Sequence record: NC_054913.1
Source of the DNA: Escherichia phage F2
Strand: one strand, 5' to 3'
Length of the DNA stretch: 64,000 nucleotides
Shown here: positions 3 to 42,450 of the stretch, piece by piece
Layout: each line of letters begins with the position of its first letter
Numbering within the stretch: the stretch's first letter is position 1
Notes under the pieces: model-generated
What the model was told of the DNA's origin: nothing
The model's database searches: none
Seen by the model: only the letters and a program-made list of their open reading frames with translations
Made by a program: the position numbers and the translations under genes

Positions 3-470
3 ATTCGTCGTATGCTTCAAGAAGGTGAAGAATCATTACAAGAATATTTTAAAGAGTTTGAAAAAGAATTCCGTCAATTGAATTATATTAGCATCGCGTC
101 GGTATCTTCTGCGAATAACATTGCTAAATATGATGTAGGTGGATTCCCTGGTCCCAAATGTCCATTCCATATTCGTGGAATTCTGACGTATAACCGGGCT
201 ATCAAAGGTAATATCGATGCACCGCAAGTTGTAGAAGGTGAAAAAGTATATGTTCTGCCTTTACGTGAAGGAAACCCATTCGGTGATAAATGTATCGCAT
301 GGCCTTCTGGTACTGAAATCACAGATTTAATTAAAGACGACGTACTTCATTGGATGGACTACACTGTTCTCCTTGAGAAGACATTTATTAAACCACTTGA
401 AGGATTCACATCAGCAGCGAAACTCGATTATGAGAAGAAAGCATCTCTGTTCGATATGTTCGATTTTTGA
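3..470 (+). CDS. 43: DNA polymerase gp43, C-terminal fragment (5' end lies outside window)
   Basis: Translation ends ...KYDVGGFPGPKCPFHIRGILTYNRAIKG...KASLFDMFDF, matching the remembered T4 gp43 C-terminus including the clamp-binding tail; no upstream start within window. Confidence 0.85.
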   Translation: MRRMLQEGEESLQEYFKEFEKEFRQLNYISIASVSSANNIAKYDVGGFPGPKCPFHIRGILTYNRAIKGNIDAPQVVEGEKVYVLPLREGNPFGDKCIAWPSGTEITDLIKDDVLHWMDYTVLLEKTFIKPLEGFTSAAKLDYEKKASLFDMFDF

Positions 471-510
471 TATAATGTCATGGACGGTAAACTAATTAAA
501 TGAGAGAAAT

Positions 511-1146
511 ATGAAAACTACTCCTATTACTATCGCTATTGACGCAATCATAAAACAAGCTTCTTCTTTGGCCGCTATGGCCAAAGTAATTAGTCAAAAC
601 CCTGCTCGTTATAATGCTATTCTAGAAACTCTTCGACGCCCAGGACTTAGTAATTATGAAAGCCGAGTAATTATTACAGGTGTTGGTAAGAATGCTAATA
701 TTGCAACTAAAGCTTCTGAGACATTTGCTTCACTCGGTATCCCGAGTATGTACTTGAACACTGGACATTATTCTCACGGTGATGCAGGATTCATTGCGCC
801 TAATGATGTGTTGATTCATATTAGTCGTTCTGGTAAAACTGAAGAAATGATAGGCGTGGCTAAGCATCTTAAAATGATTCGTCCGAACGTCAAACAGATT
901 CTGTTGCATTGTAACCCGGACATTCCACAAGAATACGAAGCTCTTTTTGATTATACGTTCTGTACAGGCATCGCAGTAGAGGTTGATGAGAATTCTCTGG
1001 CTCCGACCATGTCCACTACATTGTTGTTAGCGCTTATCGATACGTTTGCTATCAACCTTTCGTCTGAACGTGGATTTACCTCTAATGACTTCCTTAAGTT
1101 CCACCCTGGCGGTGCACTAGGTGCCATGTTACGAGGCGAACAATGA
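511..1146 (+). CDS. SIS-domain sugar-phosphate isomerase, KdsD/GutQ-like (arabinose-5-phosphate isomerase type, no CBS domains)
   Basis: ITGVGKNANIATKASETFASLGIPSMYLNTGHYSHGDAGF...HISRSGKTEEM...LAPTMSTTLLLALIDTF...FHPGGALG aligns motif-for-motif with the KdsD SIS domain (GMGKSG..FASTGTPS..HGDLG..ISNSGES..LAPTSSTT..SHPGGALG). Confidence 0.8.
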   Translation: MKTTPITIAIDAIIKQASSLAAMAKVISQNPARYNAILETLRRPGLSNYESRVIITGVGKNANIATKASETFASLGIPSMYLNTGHYSHGDAGFIAPNDVLIHISRSGKTEEMIGVAKHLKMIRPNVKQILLHCNPDIPQEYEALFDYTFCTGIAVEVDENSLAPTMSTTLLLALIDTFAINLSSERGFTSNDFLKFHPGGALGAMLRGEQ

Positions 1147-1286
1147 AAGCAATAACAATAGGACTTTTACTATTGATGCTTGTCATGACTATCTACTGGA
1201 GCTTAACGGCTCCAGTAATGATTCCGACTCTTATAATCGGATGGATTATGATTGGACTACAAGCAAAGTATGAATGCTTTAACTAG
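1143..1286 (+). CDS. small hydrophobic membrane peptide (47 aa), below ORF-track cutoff
   Basis: ATG overlaps stop of upstream gene (ATGA); translation MKAITIGLLLLMLVMTIYWSLTAPVMIPTLIIGWIMIGLQAKYECFN predicts two TM helices; T4 has small membrane proteins (imm) near gene 43. Confidence 0.3.
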   Translation: MKAITIGLLLLMLVMTIYWSLTAPVMIPTLIIGWIMIGLQAKYECFN

Positions 1287-1327
1287 AATAGTGTACAATA
1301 CTCCTACTTACCAATGAGGACCACAAC

Positions 1328-3013
1328 ATGAAAAAAGCTGTTATTCTTGGTGCTGGACTGGCAACTCGTTTGTATCCAATAACGCATCATATTCCTAAGG
1401 TGCTTGTTAACTATAAACAAGACACTATTCTGAGCAATTTGTATACAATTTATTCTGACCTTGGCGCAGATGAAATTATTGTAGTAGTTCATTCAAAATT
1501 TGCTGAAACTGTTCGAGCTTATTGTGAGCAAGAAGGGTTCAATGTGACTATTCGTACAGTTGATGAAGCGTATGGTTCTGCTTATGCTCTTGCTAAATTG
1601 CACAAAGATTTAGACGGCCATAATGTAATTGTTAACTGGTGTGATATTATTCCTGATTTTGGTTCATGGTCTTGGAATGTTAACGCAATCTATGTTAAGG
1701 GTGACGAATGTCGATATAATTTCGACGGTGAAAATATCACTAATGTAGGTTCAACAGGTGGTAATGTTGTAGGAATTTATCAGTTCAAAGACTGGGAATT
1801 CTATATGGGTTCTACTGATGAGGAAATTCATGAATACTGCAAAGGACGTGATTTCGTAGAATTCCTTTACGGCAGCGCATTCAATAAATCAGAGCTTATG
1901 AATCTAATTGATTTAGGTGATATGCCTAAACTTGAAAAAGCTCATGAAGTTCGTGAACTTAATCGTAGTTTTAATGCAGTTGAAATTGGTGAAGAAACTG
2001 TAACTAAATTCGCATTAACCGAACAGGGCCGAGCTCTTCAGAAAGATGAGATTTCATGGTATCTTAAAGTGAAATCAGATTCAGTTCCTCAGTTAGTTTC
2101 TGTTAATGAAAATAACTTTGAAATGGAACGCATTAAAGGTAAGCCGGCATTTGAATATATTAAATCCAAATCAAGTCTTGCTCGTCCACAAATTGTTGAT
2201 GCAATTTTAGATGCACTGAAATTCAGCACAGACACTTATTTTGTAAGTCCTGAAACTGTTCGTCGTGATTTCACTAAAGAATTCTATACTAAAGTTATTG
2301 ATCGTTGTGAAAGTATTCAACCATTGATTGATTCATTTGGTAAAATCACACATGTGAACTACACTAAGATCGGACGTCTGAAGCCAATGTTGAAACAAGC
2401 TTTAGAACACCTTATTCGTTATCATAACCGTTCTCAGGGACAGTACTCTGTTATTCATGGTGACCCGAACTTCAGTAATACTATGATTACTGATAACGGC
2501 GAAGTCAAGTTTATCGACCCTCGTGGATATTTTGGTGAAACCAAGATTTACGGGCCAAAATTGTATGATGAAGCTAAAGTGCTTTACGCTGTTTCAGGTT
2601 ATGATGAATTCAACGCTAATCCGACTTGGGGACAGTTTACTATTGATGAAACAACTTGTAATGTGACTATTAACATCAATCCATTAGTTTACAAATATGG
2701 AAAGATGAGTTCGTTTAACGAGTATCATCATTTGGCAGTGGCAATTATCTGGATTGCATTAGGTGGTTATTTCAAGAATAATCCACTTAAAGCGGTAGCC
2801 GCATATTATAAAGGTATGGAACTTCTGACTAAGCAATTACGTAATATGGGCCGTGTACTTCAAGACGGCTCTATTAGTTATGACGTAGCAGAACCTGTAA
2901 CGGCTACTCTGATTACAAAAAATCCTGGTAAATGGGTACTAACTGATAAAGAAACTGGTGTTTCCTATCGTCCAATCGGTGGCGATATCACTCATCAATG
3001 GGAACGAATCTAA
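1328..3013 (+). CDS. bifunctional sugar-1-phosphate nucleotidyltransferase (N-term) / APH-type sugar kinase (C-term)
   Basis: N-terminus ILGAGLATRL is the GxGTRL signature of RmlA/GlmU-type NDP-sugar pyrophosphorylases; C-terminal region has Brenner motif VIHGDPNFSN and IDPRG typical of aminoglycoside/choline-kinase fold. Confidence 0.7.
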   Translation: MKKAVILGAGLATRLYPITHHIPKVLVNYKQDTILSNLYTIYSDLGADEIIVVVHSKFAETVRAYCEQEGFNVTIRTVDEAYGSAYALAKLHKDLDGHNVIVNWCDIIPDFGSWSWNVNAIYVKGDECRYNFDGENITNVGSTGGNVVGIYQFKDWEFYMGSTDEEIHEYCKGRDFVEFLYGSAFNKSELMNLIDLGDMPKLEKAHEVRELNRSFNAVEIGEETVTKFALTEQGRALQKDEISWYLKVKSDSVPQLVSVNENNFEMERIKGKPAFEYIKSKSSLARPQIVDAILDALKFSTDTYFVSPETVRRDFTKEFYTKVIDRCESIQPLIDSFGKITHVNYTKIGRLKPMLKQALEHLIRYHNRSQGQYSVIHGDPNFSNTMITDNGEVKFIDPRGYFGETKIYGPKLYDEAKVLYAVSGYDEFNANPTWGQFTIDETTCNVTININPLVYKYGKMSSFNEYHHLAVAIIWIALGGYFKNNPLKAVAAYYKGMELLTKQLRNMGRVLQDGSISYDVAEPVTATLITKNPGKWVLTDKETGVSYRPIGGDITHQWERI

Positions 3014-35436: not shown

Positions 35437-35793
35437 ATGAATAAGCTGAATATTATTAACGAACTTCGTAAATGTGCAGAACCTACTCAGGAAGGATGGG
35501 ATATTTGGTACCACGGGGCTTATCTTGGAACTATAGTTAAAGTTAAAGCTGGGTTATATTTAATTATTCGCGAAAATTCTGAATTCCCTAATGGAGTAGC
35601 TCCTGGCGGTATACGTAAAAACTTTATGGCAGCGATCAGTTCATTTGTTGATGCCGCTTACGAAATCTATAAAGAAGATTATAAAGAAGATTATAAAGAA
35701 TATCAGCAGTCACAACCGGTTATTCGTTCGATTGGTGTAAATAAACAAGCACAAAAATCTATTTGGCAACGTATTAAGGAATGGTTTAAATGA
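35437..35793 (+). CDS. hypothetical protein
   Basis: 118 aa ORF. Confidence 0.45.
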
Positions 35794-38808: not shown

Positions 38809-38815
38809 ATTTAGA

Positions 38816-38831
38816 AGGGGCCGAAGCCCCT
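38816..38831 (-). promoter_or_regulatory. mRNA hairpin between Shine-Dalgarno and AUG of gene 38
   Basis: On - strand: ...taaGGAGaggggcttcggccccttctaaatATG; the only SD-like GGAG is 22 nt from the ATG with a 6-bp GC stem/UUCG loop in between. Confidence 0.45.
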
Positions 38832-38835
38832 CTCC

Positions 38836-41800
38836 TTATGCTAAACGAACGATATAGTTAAAAGCAATGTTTTTAACCGTGTTTTCTGTATTACCTGTAC
38901 TATTTACAGTTATTGTATGTCCATGTGAACCAATTGCTACTGAATGGGTGTGAGCACCAATACCAACTGTATGGGTATGAGCACCAATACCAACAGTATG
39001 TGCGTGAGCGCCTGCGCTTGCAGCAGTACCAGATATAGAGTGCGAATGTGCCCCAGAAGAAGAAGAAGTTCCAAGCGTATTACCACCACCGGCGGATCCT
39101 CTTATAGAACCAGTACCAGGAGAGTTGTTACTTCCCGCATAAAGAGCGCTTGTGTGGCTGTGCGCACCGGCGGTGTTTGTGGAACCGCTCAAACTATGCG
39201 TATGAGCACCAGTATTATTACTGGTCTTAGTACCATAGTCGAAACTACTTGTCGTCTTAGTACCATAGTCAAAGCTTGATGTGGTTTTAGTACCTAAATC
39301 TGTGCTTGATGCACTTGCACTATGACTATGAGCCTTAACACCATCTGCCTCAGCGCTCAAAACAGCACGACCACTTGGTTTACCCTTGATAGTTTGTCCA
39401 CGCATATCAGGAATAGTACCTGTAGGATATGCGATAGCGAGCTTAGGATATGCAGACTTATCAAAAGTCTGACCTTCCATTAAAGCAAATCCAGCAGGAA
39501 CTGAATCACTTGGCCACGGAATCGGAGCACCGACTGGATAAGGTATTTGAGCATCAGAATACATCATATACACTTGACCAACAAGGTGACCAGCGGGTAA
39601 TTCTGCGACTGGGGTTTGGGGGCCTTCGTTAATTCCAACAACTGTCACGGCAGAGTTAGACGAACATTCATATTCAACTATTAACGAGTTTGAGAACGTT
39701 CCAACATATACATAAACATCGTAGGTGTCACCTGAAGTATTCATTGTAGCAATATTGGCGAAACCATTGCTGGTTCTAGCCCACATAGTGGCGTTAATAC
39801 CTTTAGGATTATTGTTGCCAGTACGAAGAACTATTTCGGTAATAGTGGCTTGTTCCGGTGAATTAGCATTAAATCCATTACCGCCAATTATTTTAAAGCT
39901 TGCTGTTCCTACAGCTTGTGGAATAGTTACTGTTGCAAATTTATACCATCCGGCGGTTGCTCCACCCTGCCAGCCGCCAGTATTAACTTTACGGTCTAAA
40001 GTAGTGTTTAAGTTAGCAAAGTTACCAGAGCCACCGGTGATATTACCGTCAGTTCCTAAAGTTGCGGCACCTGCAATAATTTTACCAGGTACGCGGAAGT
40101 CACCGGTACGACGGAATTCCCAACTTAAATCAGTTCCGGTAGTACTATTGCCCTGGTGATAATGGACGCGGAAGTCTCCTTGAGAAATTAAGGTGCCAAT
40201 AGAATAAGTGCTATCACCATTTACATACCGTTGTTTAACAATAGGAATGTATTCAGAAGTAGCAGTACGCTCTATATTCATATAAATTGGAGCCCTGACA
40301 TCTGCGTAATTCTGAGATGCAAACGAACCAGCTCCTGCTGGGCGTACCGTATCAGTACATTCGGCCTCAATATATGCAGCCTGACCTAATTGCATACGGT
40401 AATTAGGAGAAATGCGGCTATGACTAGTAACAACAACAATTTTGCTGTCATTGTCCACGGTAATCATATTGCCACCTCTGCCATCATCGCCTAACGTGAC
40501 AGAATGGCGCATTTGAACCATACCATTATTAAGGCCGATACTTAATGGGCGAAGATTACTTATTCCACCGAACCGCCCGGCATCTTTAGGAGTCGGAATA
40601 ATATGCAATGCGGCTTCTGAACGACGGAAAATAGCACCGTATTCAGCATTCCAAATTCTTAATGCATCAGCTGTTCCACCGAATTTAGCTTGACCGTTTA
40701 CAGATAATCCGCTATTAGCAACTAAACTTGATTCAGTAGCAATAGAGCCGGAAGCAGTAATACCACCGGAAGCTAATAATGCTCCAGCAATTCTAAATTG
40801 AATTGGTCCTACAGTTGAACCTGCTGCAGGAGCCGTACGTTGTGCATAAAAATAATAACCTTGGCCGTCAGCAACTTCAAACACAGTTTCACGAGATTTA
40901 TCACCAGACGTATTATTAGCAGTGCCCCATGCTTTAACAGTTACATAACTCTTATTCTGACCTGAACGAGTACCACCTTCCCACACGATTTGCTTAGTGC
41001 CGTCAATACCTGAAGCTGCTTTAAAAACTAGAGAAGCGTTGGTTCCATCACCATTAAAATATAATCCATTATTAAGCTTTAATGTTTGAACAGAAGCAAT
41101 AGTGCCATCGGCACGTAAATTTAATGAATTTGAACCAGTTTTAATATCTAAAATACCAGGCTCAATAAGAAGACCATCGCCCATACTAACAGACATGCGT
41201 CCTTGGCCACGGAAATAGTGATACATTTTAGCGTTAGAACTATAACCGATATGAGTCTGACCATCACCGTTATTATTACCATCAACATCAGTACGCGCAG
41301 TAAACATTGCCTGATTGCTATTAGGAAAATCCCATGTAGTACCAGAATCACGGCTATAACCGACCATCAATTTTTTAGTACTGTTAATACCATTGCTGTT
41401 TATTGTACCCGCAGAAATACCATTCGCAACTAAATCGATAACCCCGTCACGAACCCATTTAATACCAGTATCATTGTCACCAATTGCAATACCTTTACCA
41501 AACGAAACCAATGGATAACGTCCTTGGTCACCAACATCAGCAAGACCTATACCTATCGAATTAGCAACAGACATACGCCCATCTGTGGTATAAGACCATT
41601 GATAAACTTCAGCATTACGTCCCGTCCAATACGAAATATTCTGTGGTTTACCTGAACGAGCATCAGCAACTTCATGGAAAATAGCAGAAGAAACATGTCC
41701 GCGGAATTTACGAAGGTAGTTTATACCATTAGTATCCAAATCCGTTTCGGTTGGAGTATACTGCCAAGTAGGTAATGAAACTAAATCATATGCAGTATCA

Positions 41801-42450
41801 ATATTAGTGTCCCAAGATTTAGTGCTCACATTGATATTTTTGGTAATAACTTTAGGACCAATTAAAGAACCAGCTTTAGTTTCAATATTACTTTGAGTAA
41901 CTAAATATCCATTAGATACTAATAAACTTCCGGAATCAACTTGAAAATTACCGTTTCGATTAAAAGTCCAGTATTTTGAAGTCCCGGTTTCATCAATATA
42001 ATGGAATTTAAAACTACCTTCGTTTACTAATGTACCAGCAGAAAAAGTTCCATCTTTATAGCGTTGTTTAATCAGCGGATGGTATTCTGAAACAGAAGTA
42101 GTTGAACTTAAATCTGTAAAGATAGGGGCTTTATTCAAATGTTGGTTGGCCCAAGCACCATTTCCAGCGGTTTTAGGTAAAAATTCAATATACTTACCGG
42201 CGTAAACGAACATATTACCATTGAGGTTAAATGTGCCGTTTTGTAAATAATCACCATTTTGAGTTACATTACCGTTAATATCCCCGCCCTTAGCAAAGCC
42301 TAGGCTAATAATATTACCGAGGTCATCTTTAGTAAAAAGAGTTCGATCTTTTAAGTTTATCGCTAATTCGCCTTCGGCTAATTGTGCTGCAGTAGGATTA
42401 ACTCCTGCCACTTTGCTTCTTTTAAATTGTATCTGTTTTAATGTAGCCAT
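38836..42450 (-). CDS. 37: gp37 long tail fibre distal subunit (receptor-binding)
   Basis: 1204 aa; C-terminal His-rich [27 protein letters not shown]...[11 protein letters not shown] as in T4 gp37; order 34-35-36-37-38-t. Confidence 0.9.
39226..39300 (-). repeat. imperfect 30-nt tandem repeat (2.5 copies) inside gene 37
   Basis: cttagtaccatagtcgaaactacttgtcgt / cttagtaccatagtcaaagcttgatgtggt / tttagtacctaaatc; encodes repeated ...[10 protein letters not shown]... peptide. Confidence 0.6.

Follow-up and report, generated by a model that had tools for sequence, protein, structure and literature searches.

Among described fibre proteins, the closest to the one analyzed here is gp37 of phage T4. 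Its needle comprises a stem (residues 882–931 and 960–1009, 50 aa per strand), a tip (932–959) and a final segment (1010–1026) leading back to the collar, and its HxH motifs bind iron in the solved tip structure (Islam 2019, PMC6957217). Both the identity of the metal as iron and the iron-bound intertwined trimer are established for T4 alone. All published T4 receptor-specificity residues, from G938 to A955, fall in the tip loop.

The C-termini of Stf proteins from lambdoid and other enterobacterial prophages belong to the T4/lambda receptor-binding-protein family of Magaziner and Salmond 2022. A cryo-EM report on Bas63, a Felixounavirus (PMC12609058), describes long and short fibre tips in which the chain reverses direction at the head and the needle is six-stranded, with HxH motifs along its length. 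The counts are six and seven, and the authors suggest that HxH number may follow the length of the needle; the passages considered here give no rule for the pairing of individual units in Bas63. The adhesin of T2/T6/S16-type fibres is a gp38 of ~260 aa with glycine-rich motifs and hypervariable segments, according to PMC3157838. Tandem duplications linked to adhesin function are reported from the C-terminal region of T4 gene 37 (Tetart et al. 1996, J Mol Biol 258:726).

We analyzed the corresponding locus of Escherichia phage F2 (NC_054913.1) in a window of 64,000 nucleotides. The phage carries a needle of an already known and well-understood kind, one rung longer than that of T4. With high confidence, we regard the region as coding for the needle, stem and tip, of a trimeric gp37 of T4 type, whose tandem repeats form paired structural rungs and not a slippage site. 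The features are listed in Table 1.

Table 1. Features of the gp37–gp38 locus; positions refer to the window.
Feature	Position	Strand	Basis
gp37 (1204 aa), distal subunit of the long tail fibre	38836..42450	minus	ORF call
142-aa inserted domain, residues ~821–962, without T4 gp37 counterpart	39565..39990	minus	Global alignment to T4
Collar domain, residues 974–1021	39388..39531	minus	Pfam PF07484, E 1.9e-11; aligned to 2XGF
Outgoing (descending) stem strand, residues 1040–1099	39154..39333	minus	2XGF alignment; T4 stem 882–931
HxH of the outgoing strand	#1 39322–39330; #2 39196–39204; #3 39154–39162	minus	
Three 10-aa units (30-nt repeat), the first with STDLGTKT; T4 has two	39223..39312	minus	Tandem Repeats Finder, codon view, 10-aa gap vs T4
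Tip (head) subdomain, residues 1100–1128, 29 aa	39067..39153	minus	Equivalent to T4 932–959
(TCT)4 serine run, tip/stem junction	39055..39066	minus	Relatives' alignment, codon view
Return (ascending) stem strand, residues 1129–1187	38890..39066	minus	2XGF alignment, T4 boundaries
HxH of the return strand	#4 39040–39048; #5 38998–39006; #6; #7; #8 38917–38925	minus	
Three 9-aa HxH units, HAHTVGIGA / HTHTVGIGA / HTHSVAIGS (27-nt repeat); T4 has two	38926..39006	minus	Tandem Repeats Finder, codon view, 9-aa gap vs T4
C-terminal 17 aa, back to collar (T4 1010–1026)	38839..38889	minus	Boundaries from Islam 2019
g37–g38 intergenic region, GGGGC-UUCG-GCCCC hairpin and g38 ribosome-binding region, identical to T4	38811..38835	minus	Comparison with T4
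gp38, T4-type fibre assembly chaperone, 183 aa	38257..38808	minus	Pfam Caudo_TAP; 126/183 identical to T4 gp38 (69%)

Gene Organization and Fibre Type

The preliminary description of this DNA, made from the letters alone, correctly named the gene as the gp37 of a T4-type phage, and its estimate of about 180 aa beyond T4 gp37 is close to the actual difference (1204 vs 1026 aa, +178). The product begins with the same 13-residue N-terminus as T4 gp37 and contains the Pfam domains Collar and Phage_fiber; the PF07484 collar (44.2 bits, cut-off 24) precedes the needle. Most of the additional length is supplied by a 142-aa domain situated upstream of the collar. This domain matches phrog_3299, phrog_21552 and phrog_6722 and was recovered by tblastn in fibres of T2, IME08, ESCO10, Felixounavirus and ST64B. 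The needle holds about 20 of the 178 extra residues (+10, +9 and a net +1 in the tip). Assignment of the entire excess to the tip is ruled out, because 142 aa of it belong to this distinct insertion. The gene combines T4-type with T2-type segments in a mosaic; in the whole-gene DNA comparison, the best match spans only 87% of it, at 90% identity.

A Tfa-type chaperone gene lies directly downstream of gp37, as expected for a T4-type fibre. A T2/T6/S16-type fibre end, in which gp37 bears a separate gp38 adhesin as a cap, does not fit, since this gene encodes the 183-aa T4-type chaperone and not an adhesin. The T4-type gp38 and the shared hairpin between the two genes add to the likeness to T4, and the final 50 nt of the gp37 gene are identical to those of T4. 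An antisense ORF of 111 aa (38944..39279, plus strand) was taken as a by-product of the repeats opposite a well-supported gene.

Needle Topology and HxH Motifs

The C-terminal 245 aa of gp37 align to PDB 2XGF with E 3e-90 (phmmer E 3.1e-90; query 43–287 vs chain 18–242). This entry is the T4 gp37 receptor-binding tip of Bartual et al. 2010, which Islam et al. 2019 divide into domains D10/D11. The order of elements is the same in both proteins (collar, outgoing stem, tip, return stem, C-terminal return), the HxH motifs occupy the same aligned positions and the last 17 aa are identical. Domain boundaries and contacts of the T4 tip were taken from Islam 2019. Projected onto F2, they suggest that the chain leaves the collar, descends the needle via residues 1040–1099, builds a small distal tip from residues 1100–1128 and climbs back up through residues 1129–1187, so that the C-terminus would end in the collar.

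The preliminary description had called the C-terminal end of gp37 the receptor-binding tip. This stands for the region as a whole, which is a receptor-binding module; it does not stand for the C-terminus, which sits in the collar, the tip being residues 1100–1128 by homology to 2XGF. The 29-aa loop is probably the receptor-contacting part. Amino-acid differences from close relatives concentrate in it, and its sequence is unrelated to the 28-aa loop of T4; host specificity would reside mainly there. Annotation, host-range comparison and engineering should aim at this loop and not at the C-terminus or the tandem repeat. An AlphaFold2 monomer model (50-sequence alignment) reached pLDDT 56.3 and pTM 0.23, as poor a result as one would expect of an intertwined trimer with bound metal.

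Eight HxH motifs are present in the C-terminal 165 aa, with first histidines at residues 1041, 1083, 1097, 1135, 1149, 1158, 1167 and 1176. The spacings are 42,14,38,14,9,9,9; three motifs lie on the outgoing strand and five on the returning one, flanking a His-free tip loop. All 16 histidines of this stretch belong to HxH pairs. Shuffling the residues 10,000 times gave 1.45 HxH on average and never more than 6, which puts the observed number well outside chance. An earlier count of six or more such motifs within 38836–39310 agrees with this, as seven are inside that interval and the eighth (39322..39330) falls just outside.

Also sound was the accompanying remark that the motifs bind metal in T4: the boxes correspond to the motifs that bind iron in the T4 tip structure (2XGF; PMC6957217). 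At each HxH level, a single metal ion on the axis of the fibre would be held by six histidines drawn from the three chains, and eight metal sites are predicted for the F2 needle vs seven in T4. A literature search found no use of "GXHXH" as a name for the motif.

Tandem Repeats and Proposed Pairing of the Stem Strands

The 30-nt repeat had been described as a 2.5-copy tandem array, and Tandem Repeats Finder returned nearly the same (39222..39294, period 30, 2.4 copies, 81% matches, score 97). Its 10-aa units are His-free, follow the pattern (S/T)xFDYGTKx and lie within the outgoing stem strand, adjoining the collar. A second repeat, missing from the preliminary description, has a period of 27 (38944..39009, 2.1–2.4 copies, 87–93% matches, score 97–100) and encodes HxHTVGIGA units (VGIGAHxHx). 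When the gene was shuffled 200 times with dinucleotides preserved, no tandem repeat scored above 56; these controls rule out that the repeats arise from chance or low complexity.

Pairwise identities among the 30-nt units are 21, 24 and 18 of 30. The two units with identical peptides are separated by 6 substitutions in 30 nt, every one of them synonymous and including a switch between serine codons (TCA-AGC vs AGT-AGT), which indicates that the duplication of the 10-aa unit is old. A recent in situ origin of the third unit is ruled out by these synonymous differences together with the same three units in eight relatives.

Alignment against 2XGF has its two largest gaps on opposite strands, +10 aa on the outgoing and +9 aa on the return strand; two more, of 3–4 aa, lie in the tip. 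Both insertions relative to T4 were confirmed by whole-gene and DNA-level alignment. They correspond to a rule that extends over the family: to within one residue, HxH#1 and HxH#2 are spaced by 12+10n, n being the count of 9-residue spacings at the C-terminal end and ranging from 1 to 6. It is obeyed by 193 of 197 unique C-terminal domains, in which the numbers of 14-aa units are also equal on both strands; three of the exceptions are due to a single histidine lost or gained. A held-out set, retrieved later, obeyed the rule in all 61 complete sequences, among them 21 with a spacing of 52 (n=4), three with 62 (n=5) and two with 72 (n=6).

Thus 10-aa units and 9-residue HxH spacings are equal in number (1 to 6) in about 250 of the ~2,400 homologues, with one true exception. 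The latter is a T4-like metagenomic contig (IMGVR_UViG_3300030021_000020), with gp38 and holin genes downstream, which combines a spacing of 42 with only two 9-residue spacings; either the mismatch is tolerated or the assembly is wrong.

Two inter-subunit contacts published for T4, G921–F970 and G964–H929 (Islam 2019), imply an antiparallel register with i+j of about 1891–1893. This register would set the 10-aa units of T4 (residues 886–914) next to the HxH motifs that its return strand carries at 980, 989 and 998. Nearest the collar, HxH motifs occur on the return strand only, one per 9 residues; by this arithmetic, combined with the T4 domain boundaries, we infer that the 10-aa units of the outgoing strand are set alongside. 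One 10-aa and one 9-aa unit would thereby constitute one needle rung, giving three rungs in F2 and two in T4; toward the tip, the 14-aa units of both strands would pair likewise.

The rule is consistent with selection against mismatched strands. It could partly reflect, in place of active selection, a few inherited ancestral scaffolds combined with double-crossover head exchange. Needle length may affect adsorption or host range. We also considered, as a speculation that we rate as rather improbable, that rung number, and with it needle length, is an adaptive setting that lets the tip get to receptors through surface layers of differing thickness, changing only by concerted gain or loss of a 10-aa and a 9-aa unit, via cassette exchange or two matched duplications. 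If true, the pairing rule would be a simple and apparently unstated recipe for engineering longer or shorter needles. For fibre engineering in general, the rule indicates which insertions and deletions leave the two strands in register.

Conservation, Mosaicism and Alternative Explanations

Homologues share a mean pairwise identity of 0.33 in the head, about 0.83 in either repeat and 0.90 in the C-terminal tail. Eight fetched T4-like relatives share the spacing pattern 42,14,x,14,9,9,9 and carry three head types. Compared with T4, identity is ~89–94% between the conserved collar core, which starts near 39530, and the end of unit 2, drops to ~55–65% from unit 3 to HxH#5 and rises to 87–100% over the VGIGAH units and all that follows up to the stop codon. 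In comparisons with JQD51, S1P5QW, GiZh, PNJ-9 and ECO07P2, the breakpoints coincide with unit edges. Nine head families were found in at least two rung classes each.

These data bear on the model of the preliminary description, in which the 30-nt repeat sits at the tip of the fibre as a contingency site prone to slippage, and changes in its copy number shift host range. We consider this model very unlikely. Unit number does differ between phages (two in T4, three in F2, one to six in other family members), a 17-nt perfect match between units 2 and 3 could permit rare slippage, and duplications in T4 gene 37 are reported to widen host range (Tetart 1996, as cited by later papers). However, the repeat lies in the stem adjoining the collar and not in the tip (2XGF alignment, Islam 2019), and the known T4 specificity mutations map to the tip, at 938–955.

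The comparison of relatives that the description had itself suggested gave three units in all eight, despite differing heads and various isolation hosts, with no copy-number polymorphism among these close relatives. Such invariance is what the description had named as a refutation, seen here across isolation hosts. Nor are the copies near-perfect at the DNA level, as expected of a contingency repeat: identities are 18–24 of 30, the finder's matches 81%, and even the units with identical peptides have diverged synonymously. Far from being hypervariable, the repeat ranks among the most conserved segments (~0.83 vs ~0.33 for the tip). Changes in unit number are nearly always mirrored on the return strand, and because of this pairing one-sided slippage would mismatch the needle strands and not retune the tip. 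Among these relatives, the 30-nt repeat does not behave as a slippage hot-spot.

Another possibility, compatible with the paired-rung explanation, is that the repeats serve chiefly as DNA linkers for homologous recombination of the tip cassette, strand pairing being secondary. The block divergent from T4 (unit 3 to HxH#5) is bracketed by near-identical repeat DNA, its boundaries relative to the five relatives lie at unit edges, and one head family can occur in different rung classes. Recombination between conserved motifs has moreover been described in T-even fibre genes (Tetart 1998, as cited in PMC3157838). On the other hand, conservation at the protein level despite synonymous divergence points to selection on the peptide and not on DNA only, and recombination alone leaves the near-absence of mismatched strand counts unexplained. 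We hold this possibility tentatively, as the weaker candidate for the principal role of the repeats.

The HxH array has also been interpreted in print, for T4 gp37, as carrying iron that baits siderophore receptors (the "Ferrojan horse", PMC11705849). More motifs would then mean more bait, and the F2 needle does have one site more than that of T4. Against this, structural papers put the histidines toward the fibre axis and treat the iron as structural, T4 uses its tip to bind LPS and OmpC as receptors, and no iron-uptake link was found anywhere in the window; we give this idea almost no credence. Under the paired-rung explanation, which we prefer, the repeats would act as a conserved scaffold, and their DNA would also flank a variable cassette swapped by recombination.

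Comparison with Related Fibres

Relative to T4 gp37, the F2 protein has one additional 10-aa and one additional 9-aa unit and carries the T2-type 142-aa domain before the collar. Six Tevenvirinae phages (AV117, ECO07P2, GiZh, JQD51, PNJ-9 and S1P5QW) share the eight-site needle and the head family, with 91–97.5% nucleotide identity over the last 565 nt. They differ in collar and shaft segments and in gp37 length (1038–1160 aa), and AV117 and ECO07P2 also have tip-loop substitutions; in GiZh, JQD51, S1P5QW and PNJ-9 the loop is identical or almost so.

Prophage Stf C-termini have the same collar–needle–head module with HxH motifs, a Tfa-type chaperone and the same pairing rule. Unlike F2 gp37, they are joined to unrelated shafts, and most have a T4-like 32/9,9 layout or lack 14-aa units. 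The needles of Bas63 differ from that of F2, with its eight HxH, in the number of motifs. As for the T4 gene 37 duplications, the F2 repeat differs from them in lying outside the tip, with a copy number fixed among relatives. The segment duplicated in T4 reportedly holds the specificity-determining (tip) region with the G938V change.

The sole length difference between F2 and the six relatives with the same head is one serine codon at the junction of tip and stem, where F2 has (TCT)4 and all six have (TCT)3. In the GiZh record, the TCT run is labelled as a repeat_region.

Placement of the Receptor-Binding Loop

The last 245 residues of gp37, the distal subunit of the long tail fibre, match the solved T4 gp37 tip chain 2XGF with an E-value of 3e-90. 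T4 gp37 comprises a collar (residues 811–881 plus 1010–1026), a stem (882–931 plus 960–1009) and a tip (932–959) (Islam et al. 2019, PMC6957217); therefore, the chain runs out and back and its C-terminus is proximal. The Bas63 cryo-EM paper (PMC12609058) likewise describes an out-and-back chain. The published T4 specificity residues (G938, T939, V941, G943, Y949, Y953 and A955) all lie within the T4 tip. Needle boundaries were transferred to the window protein by alignment to 2XGF. They place the tip in an internal loop and not, as the preliminary description had assumed, at the C-terminal end; its observations held, while its interpretation is only partly supported. Right placement of the receptor-binding loop is, together with the pairing rule described below, the main use of this finding.

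Features of gene 37 and its surroundings (window coordinates)
Feature	Coordinates	Strand	Basis or remark
Gene 37 ORF, 1204 aa	38836..42450	minus	ORF call; repeats at ORF 3′ end
Inserted domain, 142 aa, residues ~821–962	39565..39990	minus	Upstream of collar; alignment to T4
Outgoing stem, residues 1040–1099	39154..39333	minus	Transferred from T4
Tip, residues 1100–1128	39067..39153	minus	Transferred from T4
(TCT)4 serine run	39055..39066	minus	Tip/stem junction
Return stem, residues 1129–1187	38890..39066	minus	Transferred from T4
Return to collar, residues 1188–1204	38839..38889	minus	Transferred from T4
g37–g38 spacer	38811..38835	minus	GGGGC-UUCG-GCCCC hairpin; sequence identical to T4
Caudo_TAP protein, 183 aa	38257..38808	minus	Pfam; after gene 37

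Paired Repeats in the Needle Stem

Eight HxH motifs (HxH#1–#8; first histidines at 1041, 1083, 1097, 1135, 1149, 1158, 1167 and 1176) account for all 16 histidines of the last 165 residues, exceeding residue shuffles (mean 1.45, maximum 6); seven fall within 38836–39310, where six or more had been reported. Tandem Repeats Finder recovered the 30-nt repeat described earlier as 2.5 copies (39222..39294; 2.4 copies, 81% matches, score 97) and, in addition, an overlooked 27-nt repeat (38944..39009, minus strand, score 97–100) encoding HxHTVGIGA units; dinucleotide shuffles of gene 37 scored at most 56. The 27-nt repeat is the counterpart, on the return strand, of the 30-nt repeat, whose 10-aa units sit between HxH#1 and HxH#2. 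This is the collar end of the outgoing stem and not the distal tip, where changes in repeat number had been proposed to act. An antisense ORF of 111 aa (38944..39279, plus strand) lies within the repeat region, most likely as a side effect of the repeats.

Compared with the window protein, T4 has two large needle gaps, of 10 and 9 aa, corresponding to the third 10-aa unit and the third, return-strand HxH-VGIGA unit; the T4 stem has 50 residues per strand, whereas the outgoing and return strands of the window protein have 60 and 59, respectively. Taken together, the stem boundaries of T4 and a pair of inter-subunit contacts from the literature (G921–F970 and G964–H929) imply an antiparallel register with i+j near 1891–1893, in which the 10-aa units face the HxH motifs of the return strand. 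We infer both this register and metal binding for the window protein. One 10-aa plus one 9-aa unit would thus form an additional metal-site rung, giving eight sites versus seven in T4.

HxH spacings were measured downstream of the collar in collected homologues of the C-terminal domain. In a plain count over 197 unique domains, 193 obey one rule: with n terminal spacings of 9 residues, the first spacing is 12+10n to within one residue (spacing/n classes 22/1, 32/2, 42/3, 52/4, 62/5 and 73/6), and 14-aa units are equally numerous on both strands (0, 1 or 2). Three exceptions reflect a single histidine lost or gained. The only true one, with three 10-aa units and two 9-residue spacings, comes from the T4-like metagenomic contig IMGVR_UViG_3300030021_000020 (L031; gene 37 at 127..2253, gp38 and holin genes downstream), and reflects either misassembly or a mismatch that the needle tolerates. 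A second set, retrieved afterwards with an n=5 protein as query, conformed in 61 of 61 complete new sequences (21 with 52/4, three with 62/5, two with 72/6). The rule offers a guide to engineering.

Shared ancestry together with double-crossover head exchange could produce much of this pattern. Nine head (tip loop) families each span at least two rung classes. DNA identity to T4 varies along the region: the stretch that begins at the conserved collar core (about 39530) and includes unit 2 stands at about 89–94%, the next, comprising unit 3, the head and the part up to HxH#5, at about 55–65%, and the last, which starts with the VGIGAH units and ends at the stop codon, at 87–100%. Identity blocks against other relatives likewise end at unit edges, and repeat DNA therefore flanks a variable cassette. 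Swapping such a cassette by homologous recombination would carry an outgoing and a return unit together, and this joint transfer would be a simple path to matched changes. Cassette exchange fits recombination between conserved motifs in T-even fibre genes, described earlier (Tetart 1998, as cited in PMC3157838). In JQD51 and S1P5QW, units 2 and 3 (39223..39282) share 73–77% DNA identity with the window, versus 96–100% over the adjacent 200 nt, with almost unchanged peptides, a pattern suggestive of recombination or conversion over very short tracts at the units.

The His boxes, seven iron sites, out-and-back needle and variable tip of T4 are already established (PMC6957217; PMC11705849; PMC12609058), and the same module was described in lambdoid Stf proteins (Magaziner and Salmond 2022). 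The Bas63 authors (PMC12609058) suggest that needle length and HxH number are related. The papers covered, which did not include the primary T4 structure paper, yielded no statement of the unit-by-unit pairing rule. Genomes already deposited carry the eight-site needle with the window's head; nucleotide identity reaches 97.5% in AV117.

Stability of the 30-nt Repeat

The 30-nt repeat, proposed as a hypervariable host-range site, is not hypervariable. In pairwise comparisons of sequences that share a layout, the head averages 0.33 identity, against 0.83 for both the 10-aa segment and the 9-aa units and 0.90 for the C-terminal tail. Comparison with related phages, a check suggested earlier, found the HxH layout 42,14,x,14,9,9,9 in all eight T4-like relatives; six of these have the window's head, whereas the head of another is different though similar in length and that of the last is much longer. 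The coding sequences of the two identical 10-aa peptides differ at 6 of 30 nt, all synonymously and including one serine codon-family switch, which indicates that the duplication is old and has been maintained by selection at the peptide level.

At the (TCT)4 run the six same-head relatives have (TCT)3, and this one serine codon is all that separates them from the window in length; the GiZh record marks the same run as a repeat_region. Slippage is more plausible here than in the 30-nt repeat. Amino-acid differences of AV117 and ECO07P2 from the window protein are concentrated in the tip loop.

Gene 37 and Its Neighbourhood

Gene 37 is a T2/T4 mosaic. Its surroundings are about 97% identical to Tequatrovirus genomes; no deposited phage matched the gene over its full length (best match 87% coverage, 90% identity). 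It exceeds T4 gene 37 by 178 aa, close to the 180 aa estimated previously, and 142 of these residues form a single inserted domain that is absent from T4 gp37, carried by T2, IME08 and ESCO10 gp37 (best identity 73%) and also present in Felixounavirus and ST64B fibres. The T holin gene follows the Caudo_TAP gene, so that the order of genes 37, 38 and t is that of T4, whose gp38 is 69% identical to the 183-aa protein. The spacer has a folding energy of −15.6 kcal/mol (z = −2.6).

Elsewhere in the window, a perfect 12-nt tandem repeat, TATAAAGAAGAT (35668..35700, plus strand, 2.8 copies, 100% matches), lies in a small ORF (35437..35793), where it encodes 11 residues.
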